Below are positions 1-23,679 of a DNA stretch of 63,715 nt, one piece after another (the first letter of the stretch is position 1; each line of letters opens with the position of its first letter). Made by a program: the position numbers and the translations under genes. The notes beneath the pieces were generated by a model that searched no databases, was not told where the DNA came from, and saw only the letters and a list, made by a program, of their open reading frames with translations. This DNA comes from Gammaproteobacteria bacterium. Its GTDB lineage: Bacteria > Pseudomonadota > Gammaproteobacteria > DAOVJZ01. The DNA lies in assembly GCA_029882995.1 (NCBI GenBank), contig JAOUJV010000004.1, forward strand, positions 1 to 63,715, read 5' to 3'.

Positions 1-487
1 TGTGTTTTTCACGTATAAAACTGATAACCATATTCTGACGGGATTTAATATCCATCCATTCTGATTTTTCATAATCAAACCCCTGCTCTCTATGGCTATC
101 ACGCATACGTACAGACAAATGATGGCGCCCGGCAGAAACAATAAATTTTTCATTTACGACAGCCTCCCCATCTCCCGACAAGCCCGAAGGTTTAATCGAT
201 TTATTGTATACCTGCTTACCATCCAGCAGCATTTCGAGATAAACTGGTAACCTCTCACGCGGACAATCCATCGCCTGGCGCATGTTGGGTGGGGTATTGG
301 CAATTTCTTCAGCAGTAAACCTTCTGCATTTCTCTTTCAGATTGCCGACATGATTAAATGTCAGACGAATAACCGCCTGATCCGGAGTGGTATGAACATA
401 GACAGGTTCCGTTGAGAAATAACCCAATACTAATGCAAACAGCCCATAGAGTCCCAATTGACCTGTCAACTTAAATACCTTAATCAT
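1..487 (-). CDS. hypothetical membrane-anchored protein (C-terminus runs off the window)
   Basis: Minus-strand frame is open from ATG 487-485 to the window edge; it is not in the ORF track because it is truncated. My translation starts MIKVFKLTGQLGLYGLFALVLGYFSTEP..., giving one N-terminal hydrophobic helix. The ATG shares its A with the TGA stop of the upstream gene (TGATG), suggesting translational coupling. No family recognised. Confidence 0.5.
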   Translation of the reverse strand, partial: MIKVFKLTGQLGLYGLFALVLGYFSTEPVYVHTTPDQAVIRLTFNHVGNLKEKCRRFTAEEIANTPPNMRQAMDCPRERLPVYLEMLLDGKQVYNKSIKPSGLSGDGEAVVNEKFIVSAGRHHLSVRMRDSHREQGFDYEKSEWMDIKSRQNMVISFIREKH

Positions 488-2052
488 CACTCTTCACCTA
501 CTGAAGAAAGTGTTGTGCGCAAACCTGTTTTGATCGGTTCCATTGATTGCAGACGTTGGCGAAAATCCTTGATTGCCTTATCTAATTCCTTGTTGGGTGT
601 TTTTTCACCCCAGCTTTTTTCAATCCGCTCAACAGGGACACGTTTTCTAAGATAAGGATCTCTTTTCCCTGCCAGACGTTGATCCATCCAGGTCACGCCA
701 AATCGGTGAAAACAACTTTCTTCTGAGCAACCGGTTAAAAACACACCTTCAGCATGATGGCGACTGATGATGTAATCGATGAATGAAGGCGGTAGCATTG
801 AAATACAGGGCAGCTTGATAACGCCAACACCTTCTGACTTCAAACGATTCAAATCTGGACCATGTTCACATCCGAACACAACCACTCTATCCGAACCTTT
901 CAATGGCGCTGTTGCATTGAGCAAATCTTCACGTACTTTGCGTAAAGGAAGATCGGGCAAATCAATCCCGGGTATCAGCTCTGTTCTCTGACGGTAAGGT
1001 GTTGATGTCGGACAAGCCCCAACACAAATACCACAACCTGTACACAATGTGGGATCAACAATGGCCTCTTCCTTGTATTTCTGCCCATCGGTGCGTGGCT
1101 GCATCACTACAGCGGCATAGGGGCAATCATCAAAACACCGTGTACAGCCATTACAATTATCCAGACTGATTACGGCTGCTGATGGTTTCTTAACCGGCCA
1201 AATAAAGGGCAACAAACAGAAAAACACGGTTGGCACCAGCAATAATGACCAAACTGACCCCATAGACCAGTCACCAATGAGCGGATATACAAACAAATAA
1301 AACCAGTCCAACCCGACTTCACCGGTCACTGCTGAAAGATCGGTTCTGCCCTGACTGACCGCAGGCTTAACAAAAGAAAGTATCAGTAGCATTGCCATTG
1401 TCCCTATTGCCAATCCACGGGGTGGATTAACAATCGGGCGACTAATTCTCAATACATGAAACCAGATACCGAATATCAGAAAAATGGGCAGACCCAGCAC
1501 ATGAATGAAAGCCATCAATGTAAAGAATCTGTCGCTAATGCTTTCCTCTGAAATAAAATTACGTACCATCGGTTCGATAAAAATCGGTAGCCAGTCCATT
1601 AATTCAGAGCTGGCAACAGCGACATATTGCGCCAGTTGATCCCACACCAACCAGTAACCGGTAATACCTAACGGAAACACAAACCATATCAACAAAATAC
1701 CGGACAGCCAGGAATACCAGCGCACACCACTGAAGCGTCCTTTGAAAAACTCGCCTGCTAAATGAATTACCAGTGTGATGACTGCGCCATCAGATGCATA
1801 TCGATGCAGGCTACGCATCACACCGGCTATATACCATTGTTCATGGGTAATATATTCAACAGAATCATATGCGCCGAATATACTGGTTTCGAAAAAAATA
1901 AAGACATAAATACCGCTAACCAGCACAACCCAGAAAAAGAAAATGGTCAGTGCGCCAAGATAATGCAGTGGATTCAAAGCACTGCTAAAAACGCCATTAA
2001 ATCCTTTCTCAGCGTACTGGAACGCATCTTTGCCTAAAGATAATAATTTCAT
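487..2052 (-). CDS. fusion protein: di-haem cytochrome b domain + 2x[4Fe-4S] ferredoxin + MvhD/FlpD-like hydrogenase iron-sulfur domain
   Basis: 521-aa ORF. Two His pairs sit in hydrophobic helices (RSLHRYASDGAVITLVIH, 14 apart; FIHVLGLPIFLIFGIWFH, 15 apart). Two CxxCxxCxxxCP motifs (CNGCTRCFDDCP, CTGCGICVGACP). The C-terminus VVVFGCEHG...KLPCISMLPPSFIDYI...GVFLTGCSEESCFHRFG resembles the MvhD-type domain. Confidence 0.75.
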   Translation of the reverse strand: MKLLSLGKDAFQYAEKGFNGVFSSALNPLHYLGALTIFFFWVVLVSGIYVFIFFETSIFGAYDSVEYITHEQWYIAGVMRSLHRYASDGAVITLVIHLAGEFFKGRFSGVRWYSWLSGILLIWFVFPLGITGYWLVWDQLAQYVAVASSELMDWLPIFIEPMVRNFISEESISDRFFTLMAFIHVLGLPIFLIFGIWFHVLRISRPIVNPPRGLAIGTMAMLLILSFVKPAVSQGRTDLSAVTGEVGLDWFYLFVYPLIGDWSMGSVWSLLLVPTVFFCLLPFIWPVKKPSAAVISLDNCNGCTRCFDDCPYAAVVMQPRTDGQKYKEEAIVDPTLCTGCGICVGACPTSTPYRQRTELIPGIDLPDLPLRKVREDLLNATAPLKGSDRVVVFGCEHGPDLNRLKSEGVGVIKLPCISMLPPSFIDYIISRHHAEGVFLTGCSEESCFHRFGVTWMDQRLAGKRDPYLRKRVPVERIEKSWGEKTPNKELDKAIKDFRQRLQSMEPIKTGLRTTLSSVGEE

Positions 2053-2123: not shown

Positions 2124-3026
2124 TTATGTCAAGTCAGAACCCGCACGTTTGTTGCGGAAATACTCTCTAATCAAATACCAGAAGCCACCACCGATAATGG
2201 TAAACCCGATAAATATACCGATGAATAATGAATAATCAAAATGGTAGGAATCCGTCGCCGGATCGTATGTGGTACAAAACAATTTAACCTTGTTTGTCAG
2301 CACTGTCACTGTACTGTCTTCCGGCTTCTCGCCAAAGACCAATTGCTTGAGTGGTTCAACAAAGGCTTGTGTCTTTATCTGTTCACCGTAAACCTGCACA
2401 TAGACCTTGCCGCCTGTTTTGATAATGGTAGCCTGCGTCATATGATCATATCCTTTAGGTGAACGCTGATAACTGAACCCTAAATCACGTGTCAGCCTTT
2501 GCATGGTCTCAGCATCAGTACTCAGGAAATCCCATTTCAGAAGATCAATTTTCTGCTGATTGGCAAACGATGCCATCGCCTCTGGCGTATCAACAGGGGT
2601 ATCAAAACCTATCGTGAGCACATTGAAGCTCACCTCCCCCAGTGCATTACGCGCTTTTGTTACTGCATCAGCCAGATTACGCGTGATGGTAGGGCAAACA
2701 TGATAGCAGCTGGTGTAGATCAAACTGATAACCAGTGGCTTGTCGAAATAATCTGATAGCTTGACTCCACGACCGTCACTGGTGTTAAAGCTATAGTTAT
2801 TTAACTGACGTCCTATTGCGGCCTGACTTAGTTCCAGTGCCTTTTTTTCGTCAAGAACCGGGCTTGAAGATGGTTCATGCTCATGCATATCATGCTGCAT
2901 GGTCATCGGCTGATGCATTGCATCATGTCCGACCCCTGTTTCTGCAATGGAAACGAAAGGCATGGACAAAAGCATTAGCCAAAAAACTGTTTTAAATGAG
3001 AAATAACCAGCTACTTGAACAACCAC
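2124..3026 (-). CDS. SCO1/SenC-family copper chaperone (thioredoxin fold)
   Basis: 300-aa ORF with the CxxxCP motif LIYTSCYHVCP, an N-terminal hydrophobic signal/anchor and a C-terminal TM helix. GTG start at 3026; ATG at 2975 is an alternative. Confidence 0.75.
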   Translation of the reverse strand: MVVQVAGYFSFKTVFWLMLLSMPFVSIAETGVGHDAMHQPMTMQHDMHEHEPSSSPVLDEKKALELSQAAIGRQLNNYSFNTSDGRGVKLSDYFDKPLVISLIYTSCYHVCPTITRNLADAVTKARNALGEVSFNVLTIGFDTPVDTPEAMASFANQQKIDLLKWDFLSTDAETMQRLTRDLGFSYQRSPKGYDHMTQATIIKTGGKVYVQVYGEQIKTQAFVEPLKQLVFGEKPEDSTVTVLTNKVKLFCTTYDPATDSYHFDYSLFIGIFIGFTIIGGGFWYLIREYFRNKRAGSDLT

Positions 3027-3154: not shown

Positions 3155-4861
3155 TTAGCCCATGGGCCAGATAGAGGCGAGATATTTCCAGTTTACTGCG
3201 TAGTAAACAACGAACAGCAGCAGGAAGACCAGAGCGAATACGAAGGTACCTGGAGCAACAAAGCCGCCGATACCGATATTGCCATGACCTGCAGGTGCTG
3301 CTGCCATCTGCAATGGTGCATTTGGTCCTGTGCTGTATTCATCTGTACCAGCCACTTTCTTGCCAAACAGGATAGAAAGCACGGTAATCAGAATATAGGC
3401 AGCACCACCCACAATGGCCACAATACCGCTAATACCGGTAATTGCCATCAAGGTATAAGCCACCGCCGGGAAGTCATAGCCAAAGACAGCGCCACTGAAG
3501 GCCATATCCCAATGACGTCGAGCCACACCCATGGTGCCCGCACCCATCATGGCGATTGAGAACACGGACATCCCCAAACCAAACAGGTAAGGCTGCCATT
3601 TGGCCAATCCCTTCATCACCAGTTCACGCTTAAACAGAACAGGGATCAGGAAATAGGTCAGCGACATAAAGGCCAGCGTAGTACCCACTACCACCGTGGC
3701 ATGGAAATGGCCTGGTACGTAGATAGTGTTATGCATTGTGATGTTGATTTGCTCGGTACCCAGTACAACACCTGAGATACCACCAATGAAACCAAAACCA
3801 ATCAGCGAGATAAACATACCGGAGAAGACCGGGTTACCCCATGGTGCTTTACGAATCCACTCGAACAGCCCCTTGTCAAATCCTTTCTCACGCTGAGCAA
3901 CCTCAATACTGCCTGGAACAGTCAGACCATGAATCATACTGGCCAGTACAGCAAGGTACATAGCGTAACTGGTATTGAAGATTTTCCACTCTGAACTGAT
4001 ACCCGGATCAGACAACAGATGGTGTGCTGAAGCCAGTTGCAGGAACAGGATATACAGCAGGAAGGCGCCACGACTGACTCTTTCTGACATTGGTCTTGCG
4101 CCAAATACAATCGCTGCAATCGCGTACCAGACCGCCACATGGGCAGATACGTTAATCTGTTGTGATGAGTGCCCCATCGCCCACCAGATAACGCGATACA
4201 TCAATGCGTCAATGTGACCGATGTAACCAATTGACCACAGGAAGGTAGGAATCAAAATGATTGCGCCAGATGCAATGGTAAATATGGCGATAATGGCTGC
4301 TGTTAACGCACCAAAGGTGACGAGAGGAATGGACCCTTCGTATGTCCCTTCCGCCTTGGCGACGACCAGCGTACCAAGGAATACAAAACAACCCAGTAAT
4401 GCACCCACAGCAAACAGAATCAAACCCAGATAGAACTTCGGATTTGCCGGCATTGGCACATAGGATGTCATCATTACACTGGAATCACCACCCATAATGG
4501 CCACATTGGTCACAATGGCGCCAATAAACATGAGTATGAATCCGAGCCATGCAATCCTCGGGGTTGCCAGTCTGCACTTCAACAATGTCGATGAAGCAAA
4601 ATACAGAATGGCCATCTCAAAGAAGATGATCCAGAAAATAAGCATGTTGATGCCGTGTGCGGTTAATGCCTGATAAAACTTGTCAGCTGGAAGAAGATGG
4701 AACTCCTGCCAACGAGTCAGTGTTACAAGTAAGGAAAGGACACCCCCGATAAGCAGGATAACGACTGCTACCACCGCATTTAATTTCATCAGCGTTTCTG
4801 CTGGTTTGTGAAATAAAAGACCAGTGTTAGGGCATGTTCTGAATAATTGATTATTTGCCAT
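3155..4861 (-). CDS. haem-copper oxidase superfamily subunit I, B-type (ba3-like) scaffold with atypical CuB-site motif
   Basis: 568 aa, many TM helices. All six canonical His ligands are in ba3-like contexts: ALTAHGINM, WWAMGH, ASAHH, VPGHFHATV. SD AAGGAG lies 8 nt upstream of the ATG. The residue at His+4 is Gln (GHSSQQ, nt 4157-4171) instead of the cross-link Tyr. Confidence 0.85.
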   Translation of the reverse strand: MANNQLFRTCPNTGLLFHKPAETLMKLNAVVAVVILLIGGVLSLLVTLTRWQEFHLLPADKFYQALTAHGINMLIFWIIFFEMAILYFASSTLLKCRLATPRIAWLGFILMFIGAIVTNVAIMGGDSSVMMTSYVPMPANPKFYLGLILFAVGALLGCFVFLGTLVVAKAEGTYEGSIPLVTFGALTAAIIAIFTIASGAIILIPTFLWSIGYIGHIDALMYRVIWWAMGHSSQQINVSAHVAVWYAIAAIVFGARPMSERVSRGAFLLYILFLQLASAHHLLSDPGISSEWKIFNTSYAMYLAVLASMIHGLTVPGSIEVAQREKGFDKGLFEWIRKAPWGNPVFSGMFISLIGFGFIGGISGVVLGTEQINITMHNTIYVPGHFHATVVVGTTLAFMSLTYFLIPVLFKRELVMKGLAKWQPYLFGLGMSVFSIAMMGAGTMGVARRHWDMAFSGAVFGYDFPAVAYTLMAITGISGIVAIVGGAAYILITVLSILFGKKVAGTDEYSTGPNAPLQMAAAPAGHGNIGIGGFVAPGTFVFALVFLLLFVVYYAVNWKYLASIWPMG

Positions 4862-4872
4862 TGTTAAGCTCC

Positions 4873-5415
4873 TTAGTCTTTCACGTAGATTTTACCGAGC
4901 ATGTTGTGATGTCCAATGCCGCAGTATTCGTTACAAACGATGGTAAATTCACCTGAAGAATCCGGTGTGATGCTGATTACCATGTCATAGCCTGGTACAA
5001 CCTGCAGATTAATATTCAGCGGTTGTAGTGAAAAACCATGGTTCCAATCCATTGAGGAAAGATGCAACCGATAGGTCTGATTCTTTTCAAGCTCATAAAT
5101 TGGCCACCATTCCCAAAGACGACCTATTAAATAAATATCACTGCCTGCCGGAGGAGCAACAACAGGATAATTACGATCCGTTTCATTTCTGACAGTGTAT
5201 TTATCTATTACTGCTTGTGCCTTGGCTGCATAATCAGCTGAGGAGATACGATAAGCCTCATTAGATAAATTTTGTTTTCCGGCCACATGCCAATACGGCA
5301 TCATGGCAAACATGATTAAACACCAGACTAATGCCAACACTATCCAGGTACCTTCGACTCGATCTATTGGCTGATTCCACCAGATACGCCGTGAGGGGGG
5401 CTGAATTGCACTCAT
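4873..5415 (-). CDS. haem-copper oxidase subunit II with CuA centre
   Basis: 180 aa; one N-terminal TM helix plus a cupredoxin part. CuA ligand pattern WNHGF ... CNEYCGIGHHNM (H, CxxxCxxxHxxM). Confidence 0.85.
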   Translation of the reverse strand: MSAIQPPSRRIWWNQPIDRVEGTWIVLALVWCLIMFAMMPYWHVAGKQNLSNEAYRISSADYAAKAQAVIDKYTVRNETDRNYPVVAPPAGSDIYLIGRLWEWWPIYELEKNQTYRLHLSSMDWNHGFSLQPLNINLQVVPGYDMVISITPDSSGEFTIVCNEYCGIGHHNMLGKIYVKD

Positions 5416-5458
5416 GAGCTTTTCCTCTTTATTTTGGGTTAGTTTTTATACGTTATTA

Positions 5459-5617
5459 TTATTTAGCTATTGGTATGGTTACGATTTCCATTATTCCCCA
5501 CAGAATATAAAAAACTGTAGGCATAACCACTCCTATAAACAATAACAGGAAGGGATTATCGAGAATTTTTTGCATCACTGGAATGGGTTCATTTTTTTCT
5601 TGTTCTTTGTCAGACAT
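5459..5617 (-). CDS. small (52 aa) single-TM protein, first gene of the oxidase operon (subunit IIa-like position)
   Basis: Hand translation: MSDKEQEKNEPIPVMQKILDNPFLLLFIGVVMPTVFYILWGIMEIVTIPIAK*. Strong SD GGAGG 7-8 nt upstream of the ATG; it ends 43 nt before the subunit II start. Below the ORF-track size cut-off. Confidence 0.6.
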   Translation of the reverse strand: MSDKEQEKNEPIPVMQKILDNPFLLLFIGVVMPTVFYILWGIMEIVTIPIAK

Positions 5618-5677: not shown

Positions 5678-5691
5678 TTGATCTAGGTCAA
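5678..5691 (-). promoter_or_regulatory. FNR/Dnr/NnrR-type (CRP-family) box upstream of the oxidase operon
   Basis: TTGATCTAGGTCAA matches TTGAT-N4-ATCAA at 9 of 10 specified positions. Its centre is 33 nt from the centre of a minus-strand -10-like hexamer TAATAT (5654-5649), a class II-like geometry. Confidence 0.55.
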
Positions 5692-5917: not shown

Positions 5918-6568
5918 ATGCTAAAAAAAACCTGCTTTGCCTCTTTTTTACTTCTATTTCTTTCTGCTTGCAACAATGAAACACCTCAAGACATAACACC
6001 AGAACCTTTAAATAATGAGTTCAACCGCATTAATGCTGATGGAACTCCGTATACAGGAAGCGGTAATTATTCCTCAGACCCATGGTATTGCGTTTATGAC
6101 AAACGCACCAAACTTATCTGGGAAGTAAAAACAGGCGCTGATGACATACATAATAAATACCATACCTACACCTGGTTTAATCAGGATCTGGCTAAAAATA
6201 ACAAGCAACCCGGTGTTGCAGATGGTGGCAAATGCACAGGCTCAAAGTGTGATACCTATTCCTATGTGGATGCTGTGAATGAGAAAGGACTATGTGGTTT
6301 CAAAGATTGGCGTCTACCGAAGCGTGTTGAATTGGGCACGATTGTTAATCGCGCTTTTTCCAAAACCGGTGCCACAATTAATCCCGAGTTTTTCCCTAAT
6401 ACACATCCCAAGGAATACTGGACTGATGAATCCTATACTTATCACTATGTGGGAGCATGGGCATGGGATTTTTCATTCGGCTATGATCGTGTTGACTGGA
6501 AAAAAGAACCCAAGTACATCAGGCTGGTGCGCAGTGATCCTGAGCCAGCAGAACCGGAAAAACCATAA
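5918..6568 (+). CDS. lipoprotein with DUF1566 (Lcl C-terminal-like) domain
   Basis: 216 aa; signal peptide with lipobox LFLSAC; motif FKDWRLPKRVEL typical of DUF1566. Confidence 0.6.
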   Translation: MLKKTCFASFLLLFLSACNNETPQDITPEPLNNEFNRINADGTPYTGSGNYSSDPWYCVYDKRTKLIWEVKTGADDIHNKYHTYTWFNQDLAKNNKQPGVADGGKCTGSKCDTYSYVDAVNEKGLCGFKDWRLPKRVELGTIVNRAFSKTGATINPEFFPNTHPKEYWTDESYTYHYVGAWAWDFSFGYDRVDWKKEPKYIRLVRSDPEPAEPEKP

Positions 6569-6573: not shown

Positions 6574-8166
6574 TTATCGCTGGACTGTTTTTTGATAAGT
6601 CCAGACAGCTGTCATCATATTTGCCCAAAGCAGTAACATGGAGGCGGCAAACAGCGTGACAGCAGGATAAAACAATAGCTCAGGATAAAATACTGTTCCT
6701 GCCAATCCCGTAATAGAACCAAGATGCAGCCAGTATTGAATCCACATTCTTCTGCCTCTAATAATCTCTTTCATATTAGGCAGCACGCCAGGGGTGGTTT
6801 GTTTTGCCTGCAAATGGAACCAGACAAGGAAAGGCATAATTTTATATAACATGCCATTAATAACCGATTGCATAACACCTGAGATAACTACAATTCCGAT
6901 AACCAGTTCAAGTAAATAATACTCCCCCGTTTCAGGTGAAATAATATTTACTGCCGTCAATACAATACCCAGAATTGCTGACACCATGGCTAGTTGCCAA
7001 AAGCTGACAGTGACATCAGGTATTTTCCTCCTTCTCTGTTTTTGTAATATCAAGGTATTAATCGAATATAACCCGGTCAGTAATAAAATCAGTAACCCAG
7101 AGAGATAATAAATCATATTTTTCCCATCGAGATATTGATGAAAATAAGTGACCAGCGACCAAAGCACTAATAGATATACCAATGATATGGGCAACCATTG
7201 CCGTATCCAGATTGGGTATTGCGGGGTTATCTGGAACATTGGTACAACCTGAAAAGAAACCCCGATTATTAACAATCCGGTCCATCCAACCAACCCCCAG
7301 CCCAGATGAATCGTGGCAAACAGGTGTTTGGCGACTCCTCCATGCGCGCCAAAAATAGCTACCATCACAACACCCATTGCAACAGTGACAGCAAGTGAAA
7401 TAACGGCCAGCTTTATTGCTCTGGAAGCGCTTGTCCTGACACCGGATGTAAACATGGTGTGCAGGACCACGACAATAAAGACTGAAAATGCCAGCCCCAG
7501 AAACGTAGCTGCACTATTAAATAAAATATCTTTTCTGAACAGAAAAGCACTGCCTAGAAAAACAACGCCCGGTACATATAGACCAAATACAATATTACTT
7601 ACAAGGCGTGACTTCGGAATGATTGTGCCAATTACTACAGGCAGGATTTGCATCATGGCACCTATCATTGTCATGGTAGAAAATCCCAATACCATAAAAT
7701 GAACAGCGGAGACTGCTTCAGGTGTCCAGCGAGAATCCATCGATTCCGGGCCAGCAAACAACAACACCATCGCAGCAACAAAACCAAATACCGGTGCCAT
7801 CAGAAAAAAACGAAATGGAATACTGATGGGGGGGGCCTGTTCAAAAGATAACTTGGGGGTATCCTTCGCCTCTGCCTTTTTCTTTTTTATGTCCCACGCC
7901 TGTTTTATCAAGGCCTGACAACGAGTATCTGCTTCCTGATCTGTTTTTTTCCAGATCAGAACTTCAAAGGCAGGTTCTTTAGTTCTGAATGTATGAAATG
8001 CATAACCGCGCTTTTCCAGTAGCGGATACAGAAGCTCCGGGTTGCGGCGATGAAGAAGACGAATATATTGCCCTGCCTGTAACTCATCCAGTGCAGACAA
8101 TGCTTTTTGCAATGGCTCCGGCGGTTCTAACTGGCTTACATCAAGAAGATACTCGTGCTCAGCCAT
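6574..8166 (-). CDS. DUF2249 domain fused to an NnrS-like polytopic membrane protein
   Basis: 530 aa. The N-terminal ~75 aa (LDVSQLEPPEPLQKALSALDELQAGQYIRLLHRRNPELLYPLLEKRGYAFH) reads as DUF2249. After a charged linker comes a ~400-aa multi-TM domain that begins PFRFFLMAP, reminiscent of the NnrS N-terminal FRPFFL motif. Confidence 0.55.
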   Translation of the reverse strand: MAEHEYLLDVSQLEPPEPLQKALSALDELQAGQYIRLLHRRNPELLYPLLEKRGYAFHTFRTKEPAFEVLIWKKTDQEADTRCQALIKQAWDIKKKKAEAKDTPKLSFEQAPPISIPFRFFLMAPVFGFVAAMVLLFAGPESMDSRWTPEAVSAVHFMVLGFSTMTMIGAMMQILPVVIGTIIPKSRLVSNIVFGLYVPGVVFLGSAFLFRKDILFNSAATFLGLAFSVFIVVVLHTMFTSGVRTSASRAIKLAVISLAVTVAMGVVMVAIFGAHGGVAKHLFATIHLGWGLVGWTGLLIIGVSFQVVPMFQITPQYPIWIRQWLPISLVYLLVLWSLVTYFHQYLDGKNMIYYLSGLLILLLTGLYSINTLILQKQRRRKIPDVTVSFWQLAMVSAILGIVLTAVNIISPETGEYYLLELVIGIVVISGVMQSVINGMLYKIMPFLVWFHLQAKQTTPGVLPNMKEIIRGRRMWIQYWLHLGSITGLAGTVFYPELLFYPAVTLFAASMLLLWANMMTAVWTYQKTVQR

Positions 8167-8181: not shown

Positions 8182-8628
8182 TTAATCCAGACTGGTTACT
8201 TCGGAAACTAATGTGTCAGCGTTTGCATCAAGTGCCCTATCCATCATTGGATAAAGTATCTGTTCTTCTTTCATATTATGCTGCTGCATTAAAACCAGCA
8301 GTGTTTCGGAGTTTCCCAGATAGCCGTCCTTATCCCTTGCTGCACATGCTGATTTCAGGTTTTGGGTAAGGGCTTTCATTTGCTCATGTTCCATGCGCAT
8401 CATTTGTGTAGGACCACCTGTTTGACCTGTTTCAGTTTCAAATGCGGGGAAAAGGATGTCTTCTTCTCTGCGCAGATGCAGTATCAAGGCATTCTCAAAT
8501 TGATCAAACAACGCTGCTGCTTCGTCCCATTTTCCTTGTGCTACTGCATTTTCAGCAGAAGCAAAATAGCCGTCACATTCCTGATGATGTTGTGTCATTA
8601 ATTCACTGATTGCCACGGCCATATCCAT
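8182..8628 (-). CDS. hemerythrin HHE cation-binding domain protein
   Basis: Repeated H/E motifs (HHQECD, ILHLRREEDILFP, MRMEHEQM, MQQHNMKEEQILYP). Start chosen at ATG 8628 (MDMAVAISEL...) because of the SD GGAGAGG just upstream; the ORF track begins earlier, at 8700. Confidence 0.75.
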   Translation of the reverse strand: MDMAVAISELMTQHHQECDGYFASAENAVAQGKWDEAAALFDQFENALILHLRREEDILFPAFETETGQTGGPTQMMRMEHEQMKALTQNLKSACAARDKDGYLGNSETLLVLMQQHNMKEEQILYPMMDRALDANADTLVSEVTSLD

Positions 8629-8729
8629 ACCCTCTCCTTTAATATTTTTACCTGAATAAAGAAAATCCGCCCAGCTGATTACGAGCGGATAAAGAGACAC
8701 TATTTAGCAATACCTGACCTTGACAATCA

Positions 8730-8773: not shown

Positions 8774-9808
8774 TTATTTTCTTAGCTTATGGGTCAATAC
8801 CAGCGAAATTGTGAGCAAGAGAATCGCTCCCCCCTGATGTGCCACACCTAATGCAACAGGCACAACCAGCACAAGGGTGCTGATGCCGAGCGTTATCTGA
8901 ATCATCATCATCAAAAGCAATAAATGCGATGCAAGACGCAATCCCGGTGTCACTGCCTTGTTAAAAATGCGGAACCATAAAATCAGGATCAGCACAATCA
9001 CGGCATAGGCAATCATCCGGTGATTAAACTGAATAGTGGCCAGATTTTCAAACAAGTTCATATACCATGGCTCCATTGCAAACATACCCGGCGGTATGAA
9101 ATATTCATACATTAACGGGAACGTATTAAAGACGTAGCCTGCCCTTGTCCCTGCAACAAAACCACCACTTAATATCATGATGATAATAACAGTGGTAACA
9201 ACCAGTGCCAGTTTCCGGAAATGATCAACTTCATGTAGAGTCACTCGTCTGGCACTGTTTTCCAATAAGCCAAGTGCAACCCACAAAATATATCCATAGA
9301 TAAGAACTGCGGCACCAAGATGTGCAGTTAATCTGTATTGACTGACGCGCGGATTATCAACAAGGCCGCTCTTGACCATATACCAACCTAACAATCCTTG
9401 CAGACCACCGAGCAAAAACATGGTGATTAGTTTTGGTATGAGTTCACGTTTTATTTTTTTCAGTGCAAGAAAGATCAAAAACGGTATCAAAAAAACTATA
9501 CCAATGGTTCTACCCAATAGACGGTGACCATATTCATACCAGAAAATAGATTTGAATTCATCCAGACTCATTCCCTTGTTAACTTTCTTGTATTCCGGGA
9601 AATTTTTGTATTTTGAAAATGTCTCCTGCCAGCTTTCCTCTGTCAATGGAGGGATCGCACCCATGATCGGCTTCCAGTCAACCATAGAAAGTCCTGAACC
9701 GGTTAAGCGGGTAGCACCACCAAGAATCACCATGGAAAAAATCAGTCCACAGCAAACCAGCAGCCAGATGGCGAGTTGACGATTGTTTTTTTGTTCTTGT
9801 GTAATCAA
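8774..9808 (-). CDS. ctaA: haem A synthase (COX15/CtaA family)
   Basis: 344 aa, ~8 TM helices. N-terminal motif GGATRLTGSGLSMVDWKPIMG and conserved His residues in helices (YGHRLLG, LTAHLG, QFNHRM, VAHQGG). Confidence 0.85.
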   Translation of the reverse strand: MITQEQKNNRQLAIWLLVCCGLIFSMVILGGATRLTGSGLSMVDWKPIMGAIPPLTEESWQETFSKYKNFPEYKKVNKGMSLDEFKSIFWYEYGHRLLGRTIGIVFLIPFLIFLALKKIKRELIPKLITMFLLGGLQGLLGWYMVKSGLVDNPRVSQYRLTAHLGAAVLIYGYILWVALGLLENSARRVTLHEVDHFRKLALVVTTVIIIMILSGGFVAGTRAGYVFNTFPLMYEYFIPPGMFAMEPWYMNLFENLATIQFNHRMIAYAVIVLILILWFRIFNKAVTPGLRLASHLLLLMMMIQITLGISTLVLVVPVALGVAHQGGAILLLTISLVLTHKLRK

Positions 9809-13052: not shown

Positions 13053-13877
13053 TTATTTACGTCTAGCCAATCCTGCCAAACCAATCAAACCAGAACCAAA
13101 CAACCAGATCGCCGCCGGAACAGGCACAGGTGAAGCTGAAAGGATTTGAGTATTCCATGCCTCTACATAAGGGATGCCTTGAAAATCAGCCCATTCCGCC
13201 CCAAAAATATTAATAGAAACATATGTGGCAGTATAATCATCTATACCATCACCATTAATGTCCCCCACATTGGCAACTGGTGTTCCATTCATGTTGCCAA
13301 CAGAAAGATGAGAAACATTTCCTGTTGTAAAATTACCTGAAAAAGGCAGGTTTGCAGGAAAGGTGGGGATTCCTCCTAGACTGGCAAAACGTGTTGCCAA
13401 ATTTAAAGTTGTCTCAGAAGCATTTGTTGTACCATTGGAACCTGAAAAATCTGTCATGTCTTGACAAAGATCACCCATAATAGTGCCGCCAATACAATCT
13501 ACCTGGAAACTGGTAAAACCAATCTCTCCCCCAGCAACTGTCATACCAATTTCTCCAGAATTGCCATTGCCGTAATTGGCAGGTTCTATAATATGATCCC
13601 CTACAAGATCAAAAGCCCCGCCAGATAACAAATTAATATCATCCCACAACCCAAGAGACTGACCAACGCTTGGCAATTCATATGAAAATGAGGTGTTGTA
13701 TGCGCCATCGATCCCCACATCTGATATTAATGGATAACCCAAAAATTCAGGCGTGCTATTGATTGTCAAAATATAACTTCCATCCGCAATCGCGACCGCC
13801 GATGCTGTTGAAACCCAACCTGACGCTGAAAATGCAGTCAGCACACCCAAACCTAATAATGTTTTATTAAATTTCAT
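13053..13877 (-). CDS. secreted PEP-CTERM (VPLPA-like variant) sorting-domain protein, paralog A
   Basis: 274 aa; signal peptide ...STASA|VAIADGSY. Shared family motifs GEIGMTVAGGEIGFTSFQVD, FTTG, GTPVANVGDINGDGIDDYTATYVS. C-terminus SPVPVPAAIWLFGSGLIGLAGLARRK. SD GGGAGGGGAG. Confidence 0.85.
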   Translation of the reverse strand: MKFNKTLLGLGVLTAFSASGWVSTASAVAIADGSYILTINSTPEFLGYPLISDVGIDGAYNTSFSYELPSVGQSLGLWDDINLLSGGAFDLVGDHIIEPANYGNGNSGEIGMTVAGGEIGFTSFQVDCIGGTIMGDLCQDMTDFSGSNGTTNASETTLNLATRFASLGGIPTFPANLPFSGNFTTGNVSHLSVGNMNGTPVANVGDINGDGIDDYTATYVSINIFGAEWADFQGIPYVEAWNTQILSASPVPVPAAIWLFGSGLIGLAGLARRK

Positions 13878-13938
13878 AACTCCCCTCCCTTTATATTTAT
13901 ACTTGATTACTACTAAAATAAATTTCCGTTTGTATTTT

Positions 13939-14739
13939 TTAATTTTTATATCGCGCTAGCCCCAACAAACCCACAAGACCAGAACCGAATAACCAGACTG
14001 CGGCTGGAACAGGAACGGGTGAAGCTGAAAGAATTTGGGTATTCCAAACCTCAATAATTGGAGTCCCGTTAAAATCTCCCCATTCAGGAGTAAATGCACC
14101 CGCTGATACAAATGTTGCGGTGTAATCATCTATTCCATCGCCATCCAAATCTCCTGCATTGGCAACGGGCGTTCCGTTAACAGTACCCGCAATGTTTGTC
14201 GATGAGCCGGTTGTGAATGTATTAAACCCCCACTGTTTATCTGTAAACACAGGAAAAACAGACATCGCAGCCTGACGCCCACTGAAATCAAGGCTGGTCT
14301 CACCAAAGGTTGTTGTACCACTTAGTATGGAAGCATCGTATGCATACTGGGCAATAGTTCCGCAACATGTATTCCCAATGGAATCCACCTGGAAACTGGT
14401 CACGCTAATGTTGCCACCTGACACAACTATCCCGATCTCTCCTGCATTACCATTGCCAGCAATAGTCGTATGACCAAACACATCGGAAAGTGCTTCATCA
14501 AACATCCCATTAGACGTCCCTGTTGCTGGAAGAAGACCAACAGTTAAAGAGGTGTTCCACGCTCCATCAGTGCCGACATCTGCCACTGTTGGATAGCCTA
14601 AATCAGAAAGGTCCGGTGAAATATTAATTACCAATGTATAACTTCCATCTGCAATCGCTACTGCAGATGCTGTTGTCATTGCCCCAGATAATGCAAGCAA
14701 ACCCGCAACACCTAAAACCACTCCGGTTTTCTTTTCCAT
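13939..14739 (-). CDS. secreted PEP-CTERM (VPLPA-like variant) sorting-domain protein, paralog B
   Basis: Same architecture as A (ASAVAIADGSY, GEIGIVVSGGNISVTSFQVD, GTPVANAGDLDGDGIDDYTATFVS, SPVPVPAAVWLFGSGLVGLLGLARYKN). ATG 14739 (MEKKTGVV...) is preferred over GTG 14754 by comparison with the paralog N-termini. Confidence 0.85.
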   Translation of the reverse strand: MEKKTGVVLGVAGLLALSGAMTTASAVAIADGSYTLVINISPDLSDLGYPTVADVGTDGAWNTSLTVGLLPATGTSNGMFDEALSDVFGHTTIAGNGNAGEIGIVVSGGNISVTSFQVDSIGNTCCGTIAQYAYDASILSGTTTFGETSLDFSGRQAAMSVFPVFTDKQWGFNTFTTGSSTNIAGTVNGTPVANAGDLDGDGIDDYTATFVSAGAFTPEWGDFNGTPIIEVWNTQILSASPVPVPAAVWLFGSGLVGLLGLARYKN

Positions 14740-14880
14740 CTTCCTGCTCCCCACATTAGTTTATTATCAATAACTGATAACACATTTAGCCCAAGTCCAA
14801 ATCAGTCTATCAAAGATTTATTCATATATGTATGTTTTTTTGATTGCGCAAAATAAAAAAACAGTCATAGCTGTTTTCTA

Positions 14881-14930
14881 AACAACAAAAAGCCCTTCAA
14901 GGAACAGTGTTCTCTATTCCTTGAAGGGCT
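14881..14930 (-). terminator. rho-independent terminator after paralog C
   Basis: 14-bp stem AGCCCTTCAAGGAA / TTCCTTGAAGGGCT, followed on the minus strand by TTTTGTTGTT. Confidence 0.75.
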
Positions 14931-15001
14931 TTATTTTTTATTAGCTTTTTATTTCAAAATCAGAATGGCTATATTCGATACCTGGCTAACAATAATTATT
15001 T

Positions 15002-15778
15002 TTATGCTTTGCGGCGACGAGCAATACCGGCAAGACCTAACAGACCTGAACCAAACAACCATAAAGCGGCTGGTACGGGTACCGCAGATACAATCTCAAC
15101 ATTCCATACTTCAAAATATGGCATAGGATAAACATCCCCCCACTCAGGTCCAAACTCACCTGCCGACTTGAATACTGCCGTATAATCATCGACACCATCA
15201 CCATTAATATCACCAACATTAGCCACCGCTACACCTGTATCCGAACCAATTAAATTGCTCGCGGTAGTACCGGTAGTAAAAGGTGCATAATCCCATTTTT
15301 TATCTGTTATTCCATATGCACTCATTGATGCTACACGACCAGTTAAATCAAAACTTGTAGTGGATGCATTAGTAATCCCGCTCATCATGCTTGTATCATT
15401 CGTGCTCTGAGAAAAATCACCTCCAGCTGTATCTAAAACAGGATCTACCTGAAAACTGGTAAATGAGATGGTACCACCTGAAATAGTGAGACCAAGTTTG
15501 CCTGCCACACCATCACATGCGATATCTCCCGGCAAACAAATACCAACTTCCGCTTCTGTAAAATAATTTGAACCTGAACTTCCTGGAAGCGCATTAAAGG
15601 CAATCTGGCTATCGTTACTCGTATAATCAGGTAAAACCGGCAAACCTGGTGGCAGCACATAAGGCAGAATGTTCATTTGATAATTGCCATCAGCAATGGC
15701 CACTGCTGATGCGGTTGTTGTGATTGCCGAACTTGTAAATATGGAAAGTGCTATTAATCCTGTAATCCAGTTTTTCAT
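15002..15778 (-). CDS. secreted PEP-CTERM (VPLPA-like variant) sorting-domain protein, paralog C
   Basis: 258 aa; ASAVAIADGNY, GKLGLTISGGTISFTSFQVD, VAVANVGDINGDGVDDYTAVFKS, VPVPAALWLFGSGLLGLAGIARRRKA. SD AAGGAGAG. Confidence 0.85.
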   Translation of the reverse strand: MKNWITGLIALSIFTSSAITTTASAVAIADGNYQMNILPYVLPPGLPVLPDYTSNDSQIAFNALPGSSGSNYFTEAEVGICLPGDIACDGVAGKLGLTISGGTISFTSFQVDPVLDTAGGDFSQSTNDTSMMSGITNASTTSFDLTGRVASMSAYGITDKKWDYAPFTTGTTASNLIGSDTGVAVANVGDINGDGVDDYTAVFKSAGEFGPEWGDVYPMPYFEVWNVEIVSAVPVPAALWLFGSGLLGLAGIARRRKA

Positions 15779-15852
15779 TTAAAGCTCTCCTTATATTGCA
15801 TCCAAAACCTATAATTCATCAAGCCCAAACCAGAATTATTATTTTTATTTAT

Positions 15853-15890
15853 TATAAAAAACGGGGATACACATTAATGCGCATCCCCGT
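15853..15890 (-). terminator. rho-independent terminator after paralog D
   Basis: Stem ACGGGGAT / ATCCCCGT, followed on the minus strand by TTTTTT. Confidence 0.7.
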
Positions 15891-15951
15891 TCTATCCGTT
15901 TTAGTCTTTTAGTTCCACAAGAATCCTTACTTGTGATTGACTACATATTAC

Positions 15952-16746
15952 TTACGCTTTGCGGCGACGAGCAATACCAGCCAGACCTACTAGACCAGAA
16001 CCGAACAACCATACTGCAGCTGGAACTGGAACAGGTGAAGACATGATGTCAACTTTCAGTACTTCAACATAAGCAGCACCGTTGAAATCACCCCATTCTG
16101 CACCAACATTACCGCCTGAAACGAAAGTAGCAGTGTAGTCATCAAGGCCATCACCATTTACGTCACCAACGTTTGCAACAGCTGTACCGTTGTTAGTTAC
16201 ACCATTAGCAGTTGAAGCACCTGTGGTGAAGGTTCCATAATCCCAAGGATTATCAAACATTGGCATACCGCTGATTGCGCCCAAAAGACCAGTCAGAGTG
16301 AATGATGTTTCACCTGCAGTTGATGTACCAGACATCGCGCTTGTATCGCTTGCATACTTAATGAAAGTACCACCCGCTGTTGAATAAATAGCATCAAACT
16401 GTACGCTTGTGAATGCAATATCACCCATAGCATCAACAGTCATAGCAAGAGAGCCGGCCATACCGTCACCACCAATACCTACATTTATGCCTTGAACAGT
16501 AGTAGGACCAGTATCAGTCATGCGCTGTGAAACACCAGTTGTAGGTGTTGGGTCAAATGTGAAAGTTGAGTTCCAGTTACCATCTGTACCAGCATCAGCA
16601 ATAGTACAAAGACCAAGGTAACAAGGTGTTTCTTGAATTTCCATTGAGTAACTACCTGTAGCGATTTGTACCGCTGAAGCAGATGTTGCAAGCGCAGCAG
16701 CACCGAATGCTGTTGCCAAAGATAAAGCTATTTTAGACTTCTTCAT
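15952..16746 (-). CDS. secreted PEP-CTERM (VPLPA-like variant) sorting-domain protein, paralog D
   Basis: 264 aa; SASAVQIATGSY, GSLAMTVDAMGDIAFTSVQFD, GTAVANVGDVNGDGLDDYTATFVS, SPVPVPAAVWLFGSGLVGLAGIARRRKA. Strong SD GGAGGAG. Confidence 0.85.
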   Translation of the reverse strand: MKKSKIALSLATAFGAAALATSASAVQIATGSYSMEIQETPCYLGLCTIADAGTDGNWNSTFTFDPTPTTGVSQRMTDTGPTTVQGINVGIGGDGMAGSLAMTVDAMGDIAFTSVQFDAIYSTAGGTFIKYASDTSAMSGTSTAGETSFTLTGLLGAISGMPMFDNPWDYGTFTTGASTANGVTNNGTAVANVGDVNGDGLDDYTATFVSGGNVGAEWGDFNGAAYVEVLKVDIMSSPVPVPAAVWLFGSGLVGLAGIARRRKA

Positions 16747-22304: not shown

Positions 22305-23570
22305 TTAGGCGGCTTTTCTTCTACCAGCCCACACAAGGCCTATCAAGCCCGAACCAAATAACCATACAGCTGCAGGCACAGGAACTGGAACTGGAGCAAG
22401 GCTAGTATACTGAACTTCATGCTCAGAAAAGTCTTCAGCTGTGAAGGTAACTATACGCTCACCATCCGCACGCATCATGAATCCTTTTCCACCGAAGCTG
22501 TTAACCTTCCAGACTGCACCTGGGGTGCCTTCTGGAACGACAGTTGCCAACCATTTCTTGGTTATGGGGTCACGAACCGGGTTACCAAATTCATCATAGG
22601 AATCGGCAGATAACCATACACCCAGAGGGATAACGTCTGCGCCTAAAAACGACACCCTATTATTATATGCATGATCCAATGCCGGGTTATCATTAACAAT
22701 GACTTCACCATTTTCATCCAGTGGATTGGCTAAAGGGTTTGTGTTATTGATAGTAGCATGACCTTCAAAGGTGTCTCTTGTTAATCCATTCAGCTCAGTT
22801 TCCATGTAGTAACTTCCATAACTTCGCATAATAAGACCAGGAACAATCTGAGAGACGGGTTCAGCTGTACTTGCATCCCCATCGACATAATAAACATCAA
22901 AAACAACATCGAATGTTATTTGCCCTGCCATGATTGCTGTACCACTCGCATCATCAGCTAAAACTGAGCCACACCAGCCTTTACCATCAGAAATACCGTA
23001 AGGGCTGAAATTAATCGAAGTGTCGTAGACACCATCTTGCGGAAAAACTGAGGGAGGAAGCCCTGCATTAGCTCCATCACCATCATAAGAAAACATATCA
23101 ACGAAGCCGAAATCCATACCAGACATGGGTACATGGTAATTACCGGCTTTATCAATCTGCATATTGTAAAAATGGCTCTCTGGCATGTCATACCCCCAAT
23201 CACCAAACTTGATGATGCCATCCTGAGAGGCATTTCTATACAAATCAGGGGAGCCAAACTCGACCGATAAGTCGGTTCGTAGATCCTTGGTTAATCCATC
23301 TGCCGGCAACGTATGTACATTTTGCTCTTGCCCAATTCGGGTTGCATCAAATCCAGTGATACCAGTCACTGTGGAAGTCACTGCAAAATCATTAGCTCCA
23401 ACCCCGTTTGGGCCTTTGTAACCCCAATCGTTAAATCTCAGGAAACTATTATTGACCGTTCCATAAGTCGCTTCATCATAATATTTATAATGATCTGTAG
23501 GTGTCGCAGCAAAAGCTGGCTGAGATATGGCACCTAGTAGTGCTACGGTAATTATTTTTCGATGATTCAT
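22305..23570 (-). CDS. secreted PEP-CTERM (VPLPA-like variant) sorting-domain protein, unrelated to paralogs A-D
   Basis: Start at ATG 23570 (MNHRKIITVALLGAISQPAFA|ATP, SD GGGGAG). C-terminus APVPVPVPAAVWLFGSGLIGLVWAGRRKAA. No domain recognised in the ~380-aa mature part. Confidence 0.8.
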   Translation of the reverse strand: MNHRKIITVALLGAISQPAFAATPTDHYKYYDEATYGTVNNSFLRFNDWGYKGPNGVGANDFAVTSTVTGITGFDATRIGQEQNVHTLPADGLTKDLRTDLSVEFGSPDLYRNASQDGIIKFGDWGYDMPESHFYNMQIDKAGNYHVPMSGMDFGFVDMFSYDGDGANAGLPPSVFPQDGVYDTSINFSPYGISDGKGWCGSVLADDASGTAIMAGQITFDVVFDVYYVDGDASTAEPVSQIVPGLIMRSYGSYYMETELNGLTRDTFEGHATINNTNPLANPLDENGEVIVNDNPALDHAYNNRVSFLGADVIPLGVWLSADSYDEFGNPVRDPITKKWLATVVPEGTPGAVWKVNSFGGKGFMMRADGERIVTFTAEDFSEHEVQYTSLAPVPVPVPAAVWLFGSGLIGLVWAGRRKAA

Positions 23571-23679
23571 TACTACTCCCCTCAAATCCTCAAAATTAAA
23601 CAACTAGTTTGCAGATAATTATTTTTGTCTGCATGCTTAACAAGTAATAGTATTTCCCCATATATTCTCTAAAGATATA

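Follow-up and report, generated by a model that had tools for sequence, protein, structure and literature searches.

A gammaproteobacterial operon that very probably encodes an eNOR-family nitric oxide reductase related to ba3-type oxygen reductases

Background

A haem-copper enzyme that has all the histidine ligands of a ba3-type oxygen reductase and a glutamine in place of the cross-linked tyrosine raises the question of whether it reduces oxygen or nitric oxide. We examined such an enzyme in the genome of a Gammaproteobacteria bacterium (GCA_029882995.1, contig JAOUJV010000004.1, positions 1-63,715; this whole 63,715-nt stretch is referred to as the window). An earlier note on this DNA proposed a B-related enzyme of NO-reductase type without choosing among the eNOR, sNOR, bNOR and gNOR families. 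Our analysis supports that proposal and points to eNOR: the region is very probably an operon for an eNOR-family haem-copper NO reductase whose ancestry lies in the B-type (ba3-like) oxygen reductases.

The eNOR family has been named since 2008 (Hemp & Gennis 2008), and a member was characterized biochemically in 2024 (Murali et al. 2024, PMC11214002). Its diagnostic feature is the replacement of the cross-linked Tyr by Gln (PMC8756737, Table A4, Fig. 6 legend), while sNOR and bNOR have Asn at this position and gNOR has Asp for a CuB His (PMC8756737; PMC11214002). The enzyme of Rhodothermus marinus contains haem As, reduces NO at 0.68 per s and does not reduce O2. It is the sole NOR of that organism, in which N2O builds up when NosZ is blocked, and CtaA is encoded in many eNOR operons (PMC11214002). 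Enzymes of the eNOR type represent a large N2O-forming capacity that is mislabelled by routine annotation, and correct naming shifts the metabolic reading of an organism from an extra oxidase to a NO reductase.

Results and discussion

Subunit I and the glutamine at the cross-link position

Three genes on the minus strand between positions 3155 and 5617 encode a 52-aa single-helix protein, a CuA-containing subunit II and subunit I, the catalytic component of a haem-copper oxidoreductase of the eNOR type. Subunit I (4861-3155, minus strand; 568 aa) matches PF00115 with an E value of 2.9e-66, and its top PDB match is subunit I of the T. thermophilus ba3 oxidase (phmmer, E 3.5e-47). The best PDB sequence matches are from the B family, and NOR chains are absent from those found by phmmer at E values up to 0.001. 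In a MAFFT alignment of 31 sequences the ligands H72, H233, H282, H283, H384 and H386 of ba3 (ba3 numbering) correspond to H69, H231, H280, H281, H385 and H387 of the window protein, which confirms the earlier statement that all six His ligands occur in ba3-like contexts.

The codons CAC TCA TCA CAA CAG at the CuB histidine are read at 4171-4157 on the minus strand, just as the note had given them. The last of these (CAG, 4159-4157) encodes Gln235, which both the 31-sequence alignment and an ungapped stretch of the phmmer pairwise alignment (wwamGHssqQ compared with fwwtGHpivY in ba3) place at the position of ba3 Y237, the cross-linked Tyr of oxygen reductases. The claim that His+4 is Gln thus stands. 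Gln235 is invariant in all 11 Gln-type sequences aligned, and the position is occupied by Tyr in the four sequences of a Tyr-retaining sister group and in all 16 B-family sequences. The motif GH[SA]SQQI or GH[SA]SQQIN is not due to chance, because it is found in 119 of 120 close homologues among the matches listed.

The note had also seen no Tyr near the HH pair, and we agree. In the sequence and the alignment the C-family position, six residues ahead of the pair, is not a Tyr; the closest Tyr, Y270, lies ten residues before the pair and is shared with the Tyr-retaining sister group. Tyr299, in predicted helix VIII, is restricted to the Gln-type clade among the 31 aligned sequences; it could have a role in catalysis, and its confinement to this clade may be seen as a counterpoint to the eNOR reading. 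Several K-channel-like residues are kept in subunit I (Y246, S259, T314 and S308, the equivalent of Ser309), and two positions in this region are changed relative to ba3 (T312 to His311 and Y244 to Val242). The S308 position is Ser in every Gln-type sequence compared.

An AlphaFold2 model of subunit I (pLDDT 72.5) was used for helix boundaries and fold matches only. The first match of the predicted fold is the B-type oxidase of Aquifex aeolicus (7DEG) and the second is T. thermophilus ba3, with a TM score of about 0.73-0.75; NOR structures are absent from the top 50 fold matches.

Subunit II and the small open reading frame

Subunit II (5415-4873, minus strand; 180 aa; PF00116) consists of one N-terminal helix and a cupredoxin domain in which the CuA site is complete. 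The top PDB match is subunit II of T. thermophilus ba3 (E 1e-14), and in the alignment CNEYCGIGHHNM is paired with CNQYCGLGHQNM of ba3. Across 50 homologues, conservation reaches 95% or more at H126, C161, C165, H169, M172 and E21. We take E21 to be the equivalent of Glu15 in ba3 subunit II.

The first gene of the operon encodes the single-helix protein (5617-5459, minus strand). Its ATG at 5617 is preceded at a distance of 8-12 nt by GGAGG, and the 52-aa length is also that called on an ENA contig, while the open reading frame taken mechanically from 5638 would encode 59 aa. The complete CuA site and the 52-aa single-helix protein ahead of subunit II were both described in the note, and both descriptions proved accurate. 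With tblastn the small open reading frame was located in all but three of the 80 related loci (77), and its core, PVMQKxLDNPFLLLFxGVVxPTVFYxxWGxMEI, is strongly conserved. It has no match in Pfam or NCBIfam, and its position in the operon is that of subunit IIa in ba3 operons.

Downstream genes of the operon

Conservation of gene order was assessed in the best 80 of at least 590 relatives' loci, in which subunit I is 69-80% identical to the window protein, with neighbours counted within 10 kb. A SCO1/SenC-type copper chaperone (2124-3026, minus strand; PF02630, E 6.5e-12), with hydrophobic segments at its N- and C-terminus by hydropathy, is encoded downstream of subunit I here and in 74 of these loci. 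The next gene (487-2052, minus strand), present in 72 loci, encodes a fusion of a dihaem, b6-like cytochrome b (PF00033; His83/His97 and His184/His199), two [4Fe-4S] motifs (Fer4 families; CxxCxxCxxxC at 300 and 337) and an FlpD/MvhD-like domain (PF02662). The sixth gene (1-487, minus strand), which runs off the left edge of the window, begins with an ATG at 487-485 that overlaps the TGA of the preceding gene (TGATG). It encodes a conserved protein of about 163 aa, the length called on another contig, with no Pfam match; in 31 of the 80 loci a homologue with 36-45% identity is encoded downstream of the gene for the cytochrome b fusion.

These three genes belong with the eNOR operon, because they are translationally coupled in the window and syntenic across loci. 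Their products are not discussed in the main text of the family paper (PMC11214002), and we found no description in the literature of an electron route through such a cytochrome b/Fe-S module for any haem-copper enzyme. One possibility is that they provide the reductase with a module of its own for electron input or for electron transfer across the membrane; alternatively, they might be a maturation or repair system. The combined proposal that they act as such a module and that Tyr299 takes part in catalysis is speculative, and we consider it rather unlikely.

Regulation and genomic context

An FNR/Dnr/NnrR-type box, TTGACCTAGATCAA, can be read directly upstream of the small open reading frame (5678-5691, minus strand). 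The pattern TTGAT-N4-ATCAA, with at most one mismatch, occurs within 250 nt upstream of this reading frame in 43 of 74 related loci, and the expectation is 0.03 occurrences per 280 nt. A scan for promoter and terminator consensus sequences gave results at background level, and Rfam and tRNA scans of the window yielded nothing informative on taxonomy. On the operon's strand and some 4 kb upstream of it is a gene for a CtaA/COX15 haem A synthase (8774-9808, minus strand; PF02628, E 1.3e-114). Within 10 kb, ctaA is found in 32 and cyoE in 19 of the 80 related loci, nirS in 11, nirD/L-like genes (haem d1) in 7 and Crp/Fnr regulators in 8. There are no nir or nos genes within the 63,715-nt window, a counterpoint to the eNOR reading. 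The FNR boxes and ctaA are, for their part, also compatible with a micro-aerobic oxidase.

Divergent from the operon is a gene for an Lcl_C-domain, lipoprotein-like protein (5918-6568, plus strand; PF07603, E 1e-25), which has an equal divergent position in 39 of the 80 loci. A hemerythrin-domain protein with weak similarity to YtfE/RIC (8182-8700, minus strand; PF01814, E 5.7e-22) is possibly linked to the operon through O2/NO sensing or repair, and another hemerythrin family adjoins the operon in 25 loci.

Distribution and phylogeny

Relatives of subunit I were counted in at least 590 species genomes of GTDB, a number similar to the 547 eNORs published for that database (PMC11214002, Table 1). 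Cultured carriers include Noviherbaspirillum sp. ST 5-3 and Elongatibacter sediminis CH-27. In a neighbor-joining tree (516 columns, 200 bootstraps) the window protein falls in a Gln-type clade (169/200 bootstraps, 85%) with proteins from a Thermus plasmid, Thermomicrobium and the haloarchaeal Natrarchaeobius. This clade joins the Tyr-retaining sister group in 200/200 bootstraps, leaving ba3 and other B-family sequences outside. A Tyr at the cross-link position or a place among proven O2-reducing ba3 enzymes with the same motif would, according to the earlier note, have spoken against its proposal; the alignment has Gln there and no Tyr, and the tree sets the protein apart from ba3. Since the closest relatives outside the clade, which are archaeal sequences, keep the Tyr, the functional change hangs on few residues, a further counterpoint to the eNOR reading. 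The Thermus plasmid clade-mates have GHFK, which would give His/Lys ligation of the low-spin haem, and such ligation has been described for some eNORs (Murali et al., PMC11214002).

A tblastn search of plasmids returned Tyr-containing B-family genes from Deinococcus, Geobacillus, Mesorhizobium and Caballeronia and Gln-type genes from Thermus, Thermomicrobium and Defluviimonas; sNOR and Rhodothermus sequences were not among the matches. Among the full-length 50%-identity representatives nearest to the protein, those examined include no Asn-type sequence. The matches listed for a Magnetospirillaceae homologue searched against a 5.8-billion-protein set are unnamed proteins or proteins from metagenome-assembled genomes and do not include the purified protein of M. 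magnetotacticum.

Assignment to the eNOR family

We favor eNOR because of the Gln at the Tyr position, S308, the placement in a Gln-type clade apart from ba3 and the nearby ctaA. The protein has Gln at His+4 in helix VI, all three histidines that hold the second metal and both axial haem sites, together with a subunit II that carries CuA, residues of K-channel type among which is the equivalent of Ser309, and the association with ctaA. Membership is thus suggested by the diagnostic residue, by features described in the literature and by clade-mates, with the R. marinus and M. magnetotacticum proteins compared by description only. Defining features of the other families are lacking. The GHPxVY signature of B-family (ba3-type) O2 reductases is replaced by GHSSQQ, with no Tyr at His+4; gNOR, in which Asp replaces a CuB His and subunit II has no CuA ligands, does not fit a protein with all His ligands and a complete CuA site; and cNOR or qNOR, which pair a catalytic subunit related to the C family with a cytochrome c subunit or a fused quinol domain, do not fit one whose partner is a CuA cupredoxin and whose best sequence and fold matches are from the B family.

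That the enzyme is a NO reductase is inferred from the activity published for its R. marinus counterpart. The turnover of that counterpart, the sole eNOR measured, is low, which is a counterpoint to the eNOR reading. The operon is one more example of a known and widespread family and introduces no new principle. The NO reductase probably serves the organism in denitrification under micro-oxic conditions or in detoxifying NO.

Electrons would pass from a periplasmic one-electron carrier, the presumed donor, to CuA of subunit II, from there to the low-spin haem (H69/H387), and on to a binuclear site formed by a high-spin haem (H385) and a second metal on H231, H280 and H281. At this site 2 NO, 2 electrons and 2 protons would yield N2O and H2O, a two-electron reduction that should have no need for the His-Tyr radical cofactor, whose Tyr is Gln235 here. 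Protons are probably taken up from the cytoplasm through the retained K-channel analogue (E21 of subunit II, T314, H311, S308, Y246 and S259), and the enzyme could therefore be electrogenic. The SCO1/SenC protein would load copper and CtaA would supply haem A. The FNR/Dnr-type box points to an operon that is switched on by NO or when O2 is low, and the cytochrome b/Fe-S fusion may have the role in electron transfer considered above.

Alternative readings

The protein might still be an oxygen reductase, a micro-aerobic terminal oxidase in which the missing Tyr is offset by, for example, Tyr299 or a Trp radical donor. The ba3-like fold and ligands, the CuA site, the K-channel analogue and a nearby haem A synthase that depends on O2 all fit this reading, as do FNR-type boxes, which control high-affinity oxidases too. 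Moreover, the sister group retains the Tyr, Tyr299 is specific to the Gln-type clade, and homologues in Accumulibacter carry a ba3 oxidase annotation (PMC6446978). However, the His-Tyr cofactor is regarded as necessary for O2 reduction in the superfamily, and the purified R. marinus eNOR did not reduce O2 with several donors (PMC11214002). The Magnetospirillum eNOR is called a "hemoprotein" without cytochrome c oxidase activity in the title of a paper cited by PMC11214002, and a migrated Tyr is absent from the models of Murali et al. (PMC11214002). We therefore consider an oxygen reductase very unlikely. An equally slim chance attaches to an enzyme of the eNOR clade whose physiological substrate is another small N- or O-oxide, or which serves mainly in NO detoxification and not in respiration. 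The low NO turnover of the sole characterized member and the window without nir or nos genes are compatible with this, neighbouring hemerythrin and DUF2249 genes would fit a function in sensing or repair, and the conserved cytochrome b/Fe-S fusion could be a sign that electrons take an unusual path. Against another substrate stand the linkage to nirS and haem d1 genes in related loci, the N2O accumulation in R. marinus, and the finding that enor was the top-transcribed nor type in one estuarine-coastal metagenome/metatranscriptome survey (PMC13592168).

Least probable of all, and in our view highly improbable, is that the enzyme is an sNOR of the norSY-senC-orf1 type found in ammonia oxidizers. 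The order of subunit II, subunit I, senC and a further open reading frame recalls the coxBA-senC and norSY-senC-orf1 clusters, and sNOR likewise has a CuA subunit and a B-family origin (PMC11214002). However, the Tyr position, Gln235 in the window protein, is Asn in sNOR (PMC8756737, Table A4), and sNOR has a conserved Glu elsewhere in the channel and no equivalent of Ser309 (PMC11214002), a residue present here as S308. The absence of Asn-type sequences among the nearest representatives also argues against sNOR, which was compared by its published description. The eNOR reading is thus preferred.

Comparison with known systems

The window protein shares with the eNOR family, characterized in R. 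marinus DSM 4252, the Gln, the three His ligands of the second metal, the CuA subunit II, the K-channel-like residues including the Ser309 equivalent, and the nearby ctaA. No defining feature differs, the R. marinus enzyme being compared by description, and the family is likewise spread over Proteobacteria, Thermus, Chloroflexi-related bacteria, Rhodothermales and haloarchaea. Also assigned to eNOR (PMC11214002) is a protein of Magnetospirillum magnetotacticum, the 'cytochrome a1-like' haemoprotein, for which that paper notes that no function was ever established.

The ba3 oxidase of T. thermophilus (PDB 1EHK, 1XME) has the same six His ligands, W229, R449/R450, a CuA subunit II and the same gene order of small helix protein, subunit II and subunit I. 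However, Tyr237 is replaced by Gln235, Val236 by Gln234, Trp239 by Asn237, Thr312 by His311 and Tyr244 by Val242, and the two proteins fall in separate clades in 200/200 bootstraps. The sNOR systems (norSY-senC-orf1 or coxBA-senC) are similar to the window operon in their derivation from the B family, CuA, the missing Tyr and a senC/SCO gene after the structural genes. The bNOR or qCuANOR of Bacillus azotoformans is also a B-family-derived NO reductase with CuA and a K-type proton channel, but it has Asn at the Tyr position, is confined to Bacillales and is absent among the relatives found here.

The accessory genes and the Tyr-retaining sister group should be useful for learning how few changes convert an O2 reductase into a NO reductase. 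The sister group (GH-T-x-Q-Y-[IV]-N; Hodarchaeales and Thermoproteota) is 35-44% identical to the window protein and shares with it, and not with the B family, W77, E82, Q234, N237, Y270 and H311; it differs in having Tyr at His+4 and in lacking Tyr299. It is probably an O2 reductase and probably corresponds to the 'K family' of O2 reductases, which cluster with eNOR (FIND preprint, 10.1101/592808).

Gene content and conservation of the operon

The operon, on the minus strand, begins with a small ORF (5617-5459; 52 aa counted from an ATG preceded by GGAGG), followed by subunit II (5415-4873, 180 aa; Pfam COX2) and subunit I (4861-3155, 568 aa; Pfam COX1, E 2.9e-66). A mechanical ORF for the small protein starts at 5638 (59 aa), and the protein is 52 aa long in an ENA contig with an identical locus. 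Because the only NCBIfam matches to subunit I are to aa3, bo3 and SoxB-type models, all far sub-threshold, this protein lies outside every NCBI-curated family.

Scanning GTDB with each species represented by a single genome, we identified at least 590 loci encoding relatives. The 80 best of these, to which all counts out of 80 below refer, are 69-80% identical and come from Woeseiaceae, many gamma- and betaproteobacterial MAGs, Magnetospirillaceae, Rhodocyclaceae, Rhodothermales and Bacteroidota, and from Noviherbaspirillum sp. ST 5-3 and Elongatibacter sediminis CH-27. Subunit I is present in all 80, subunit II in 79, the small ORF in 77 and SCO1/SenC in 74, with cyoE between subunit I and SCO in a subset.

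In 72 of the 80 loci SCO is followed by a fusion protein (487-2052, minus strand, 521 aa) that joins a b6-like dihaem cytochrome b (ligand spacing H83/H97 and H184/H199), two [4Fe-4S] motifs (CxxCxxCxxxC) and an FlpD/MvhD-like domain. It may be a dedicated electron-transfer partner, and the paper on the eNOR family (PMC11214002) does not discuss it in its main text. The last gene (1-487, minus strand), for a protein of about 163 aa, is truncated by the left edge of the window. It starts with an ATG at 487 that shares bases with the fusion's stop codon (TGATG), indicating translational coupling. It has no Pfam match, and a protein of about 163-165 aa is conserved in 31/80 loci. This conserved accessory gene set is the part of the system on which we found little; eNOR itself is an already known family.

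An FNR-type box, TTGACCTAGATCAA, lies upstream of the small ORF (5691-5678). Allowing up to one mismatch, a TTGAT-N4-ATCAA box is found in the 250 nt before the small ORF in 43 of 74 related loci, compared with an expectation of 0.03 (per 280 nt) derived from its density in the loci themselves.

Active site

The top match to subunit I among all PDB chains is subunit I of the Thermus thermophilus ba3 oxidase (phmmer, E 3.5e-47). Across the first CuB histidine the pairwise alignment runs without gaps, placing wwamGHssqQinv of the window opposite fwwtGHpivYfwl of ba3. The ba3 segment 58-484 was taken from the phmmer output, which reproduces the H233 and Y237 numbering, and aligned with 30 relatives. 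All six histidine ligands are kept, with ba3 H72, H233, H282, H283, H384 and H386 corresponding to H69, H231, H280, H281, H385 and H387, and ba3 W229, R449 and R450 are also conserved.

The earlier note had read GHSSQQ at the CuB histidine and proposed that the cross-linked tyrosine is lost. The codons CAC TCA TCA CAA CAG are indeed found at 4171-4157, and both the pairwise alignment and that with the relatives place Gln235 opposite ba3 Y237. Its observation that no tyrosine stands near the HH pair also holds, as there is none at the C-family position six residues before it. Y270, ten residues before the pair, is not a replacement, since relatives that keep the His+4 tyrosine carry it too. GH[SA]SQQI is found in 119 of the 120 close homologues listed; the glutamine is therefore fixed in the family rather than the product of a sequencing error.

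Subunit II has the complete CuA site that the note described. The whole motif aligns to ba3 subunit II (E 1e-14), and each of H126, C161, C165, H169 and M172 is conserved in at least 95% of 50 homologues. In the channel, S308 (ba3 Ser309), Y246 (Y248), S259 (S261) and T314 (T315) are kept, and ba3 T312 and Y244 are changed to His311 and Val242.

Placement among relatives

We scanned 1.84 billion 50%-identity representatives with HMMER and compared the full-length sequences among the 1456 hits. The nearest are of the GH-x-x-Q-Q-[IV]-N type: P0121 (55% identity), P0126, and P0128 from the haloarchaeon Natrarchaeobius. Next are P0131, P0132, P0133 and P0151, which keep the tyrosine (GH-T-x-Q-Y-[IV]-N) and have E82, Q234, N237, Y270 and H311 in common with the eNOR type; P0132 and P0133 are from Hodarchaeales and Thermoproteota. 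Ordinary B-family sequences with GHPxVY rank after this group. The four Tyr-retaining proteins are the natural comparison for the switch from O2 to NO.

In a neighbour-joining tree (516 columns, Kimura distances, 200 bootstraps) the Gln-type sequences form a clade in 169/200 bootstraps and group with the Tyr-retaining sequences in 200/200, the latter being basal and paraphyletic. Every other B-family sequence, ba3 included, is placed outside this combined clade. The tree agrees with a preprint (10.1101/592808) that reports eNOR and a 'K family' of O2 reductases clustering together. An AlphaFold2 model of subunit I (pLDDT 72.5, pTM 0.79) best matches the B-family structures 7DEG and Thermus ba3 (TM about 0.72-0.75), and the fold search found no closer solved structure.

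The scan also returned P0199, P0204, P0215 and P0250, haem-copper-like proteins of about 550 aa (30-33% identity) with F-H-x-x-H-Y for GHxxxY, Y-H for the HH pair and altered GHFH motifs. This looks like a divergent family whose set of ligands is incomplete.

Further Gln-type genes were found by plasmid tblastn in Defluviimonas (60% identity), on several Thermus thermophilus plasmids (48-49%) and on the Thermomicrobium roseum megaplasmid (48%). In the Thermus protein GHFK replaces GHFH, which would give His/Lys ligation of the low-spin haem, as described for some eNORs (Murali et al., PMC11214002). On pTthSNM6-6b the gene has GHGAQQVN and this GHFK; its neighbourhood (L082, 6182-15052) also encodes cytochrome P460, a multicopper oxidase, cytochrome c, an Rrf2 regulator and a DUF542 protein, and looks like nitrosative-stress or N-oxide metabolism.

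Proposed mechanism

By homology with ba3 and the characterised eNOR, CuA would be reduced by a periplasmic carrier and hand the electrons on, via the low-spin haem, to the high-spin haem and three-His metal site. There two NO would be reduced to N2O, and protons could be taken up from the cytoplasm by way of the retained channel residues. In purified Rhodothermus marinus eNOR both sites hold haem As, NO is reduced at 0.68 per s and O2 is not reduced (PMC11214002).

It is conceivable that the enzyme is a cryptic O2 reductase despite the missing His+4 tyrosine. Y299 (3965-3967, minus strand), invariant in the Gln-type clade and within helix VIII of the model (helix 293-325), could speak for this; the Tyr-retaining sister group has Leu, Ile or Val instead, and the B family also lacks this tyrosine. 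However, the published enzyme data speak against oxidase activity, and we consider this very unlikely. Given the low measured turnover, a substrate other than NO is conceivable, which we likewise consider very unlikely. NO reduction is the preferred reading.

Neighbouring genes

All neighbouring ORFs of the 80 loci were clustered and representatives scanned with Pfam. Hemerythrin lies near the eNOR genes in 25 loci, CyoE in 19, HemN in 14, NirS (cytochrome cd1) in 11, a Crp/Fnr regulator in 8 and a NirD/L-type sirohaem decarboxylase in 7. CtaA occurs in 32/80. Between ctaA and the operon of the window are genes for a hemerythrin-domain protein (8182-8700, minus strand) and a fusion of DUF2249 with a polytopic membrane domain (6574-8166, minus strand, 530 aa, about 11-13 hydrophobic segments), the latter recurring in only 4/80 loci. 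A B-type oxidase cluster on a Mesorhizobium plasmid (L086) has one NnrS gene and one stand-alone DUF2249 gene beside it. Divergent from the operon is a lipoprotein-like gene with an Lcl_C (DUF1566-like) domain (5918-6568, plus strand, 216 aa), found at the same position in 39/80 loci.

The rest of the window contains glnS and gltX, and no nir or nos genes. Four tandem paralogues (13053-16746, minus strand; 258-274 aa, 42-55% identical) have signal peptides, no Pfam match and a PEP-CTERM-like sorting tail, VPVPAAxWLFGSGLxGLxGxARRK, shared with a fifth gene (22305-23603, minus strand). These adjoin an exosortase EpsH/DUF3485 gene (27996-29627), a GT4 glycosyltransferase and two large TPR proteins, in what looks like a PEP-CTERM/exosortase exopolysaccharide locus.

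Family assignment and comparison with known systems

The eNOR family was named in 2008 and biochemically validated in 2024 (Hemp & Gennis 2008; Murali et al. 2024, PMC11214002). The number of loci found here, at least 590, is comparable with the 547 eNORs counted in GTDB (PMC11214002). An estuarine-coastal survey recovered 860 enor genes, the most abundant and most transcribed nor type (PMC13592168), and eNOR is now a routine count in metagenome surveys. The names on plasmid regions L081, L082 and L083 and in NCBI reveal systematic misannotation of eNOR genes. eNORs are reported in many Accumulibacter strains (Murali et al., PMC11214002), and an earlier study cited there annotated a 'ba3' oxidase (cbaAB) in every Accumulibacter genome and predicted that FNR motifs precede it (PMC6446978); we infer that these are the same genes.

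Tyr-less families derived from the B family comprise eNOR, sNOR, gNOR and nNOR, plus bNOR (Murali et al. 2024, PMC11214002). At the tyrosine position, Gln characterises eNOR and Asn both sNOR and CuANOR/bNOR, and gNOR has an Asp in place of a His (PMC8756737, Table A4, after Hemp & Gennis 2008); putative eNORs have been flagged in a tree by this Gln (PMC8756737, Fig. 6 legend). The Ser309 equivalent is missing in sNOR and kept in eNOR, bNOR and the B family (PMC11214002). The sNOR gene order (coxBA-senC) resembles that of the window. Assignment to sNOR (norSY/coxBA-senC type) was rejected on its two published defining residues, Asn at the tyrosine position and no Ser309 equivalent.

The NO-reductase-type, B-family-derived reading of the earlier note, which left the named family undecided, is correct and can be narrowed to eNOR by Gln235, the Ser309 equivalent and the Gln-type clade. 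Membership is thus supported by diagnostic sequence features and clade-mates, with R. marinus, M. magnetotacticum and sNOR compared by description only. Published eNORs have Gln at the tyrosine position, the Ser309 equivalent and, in many operons, CtaA (PMC11214002); the window has Gln235, S308 and ctaA (8774-9808).
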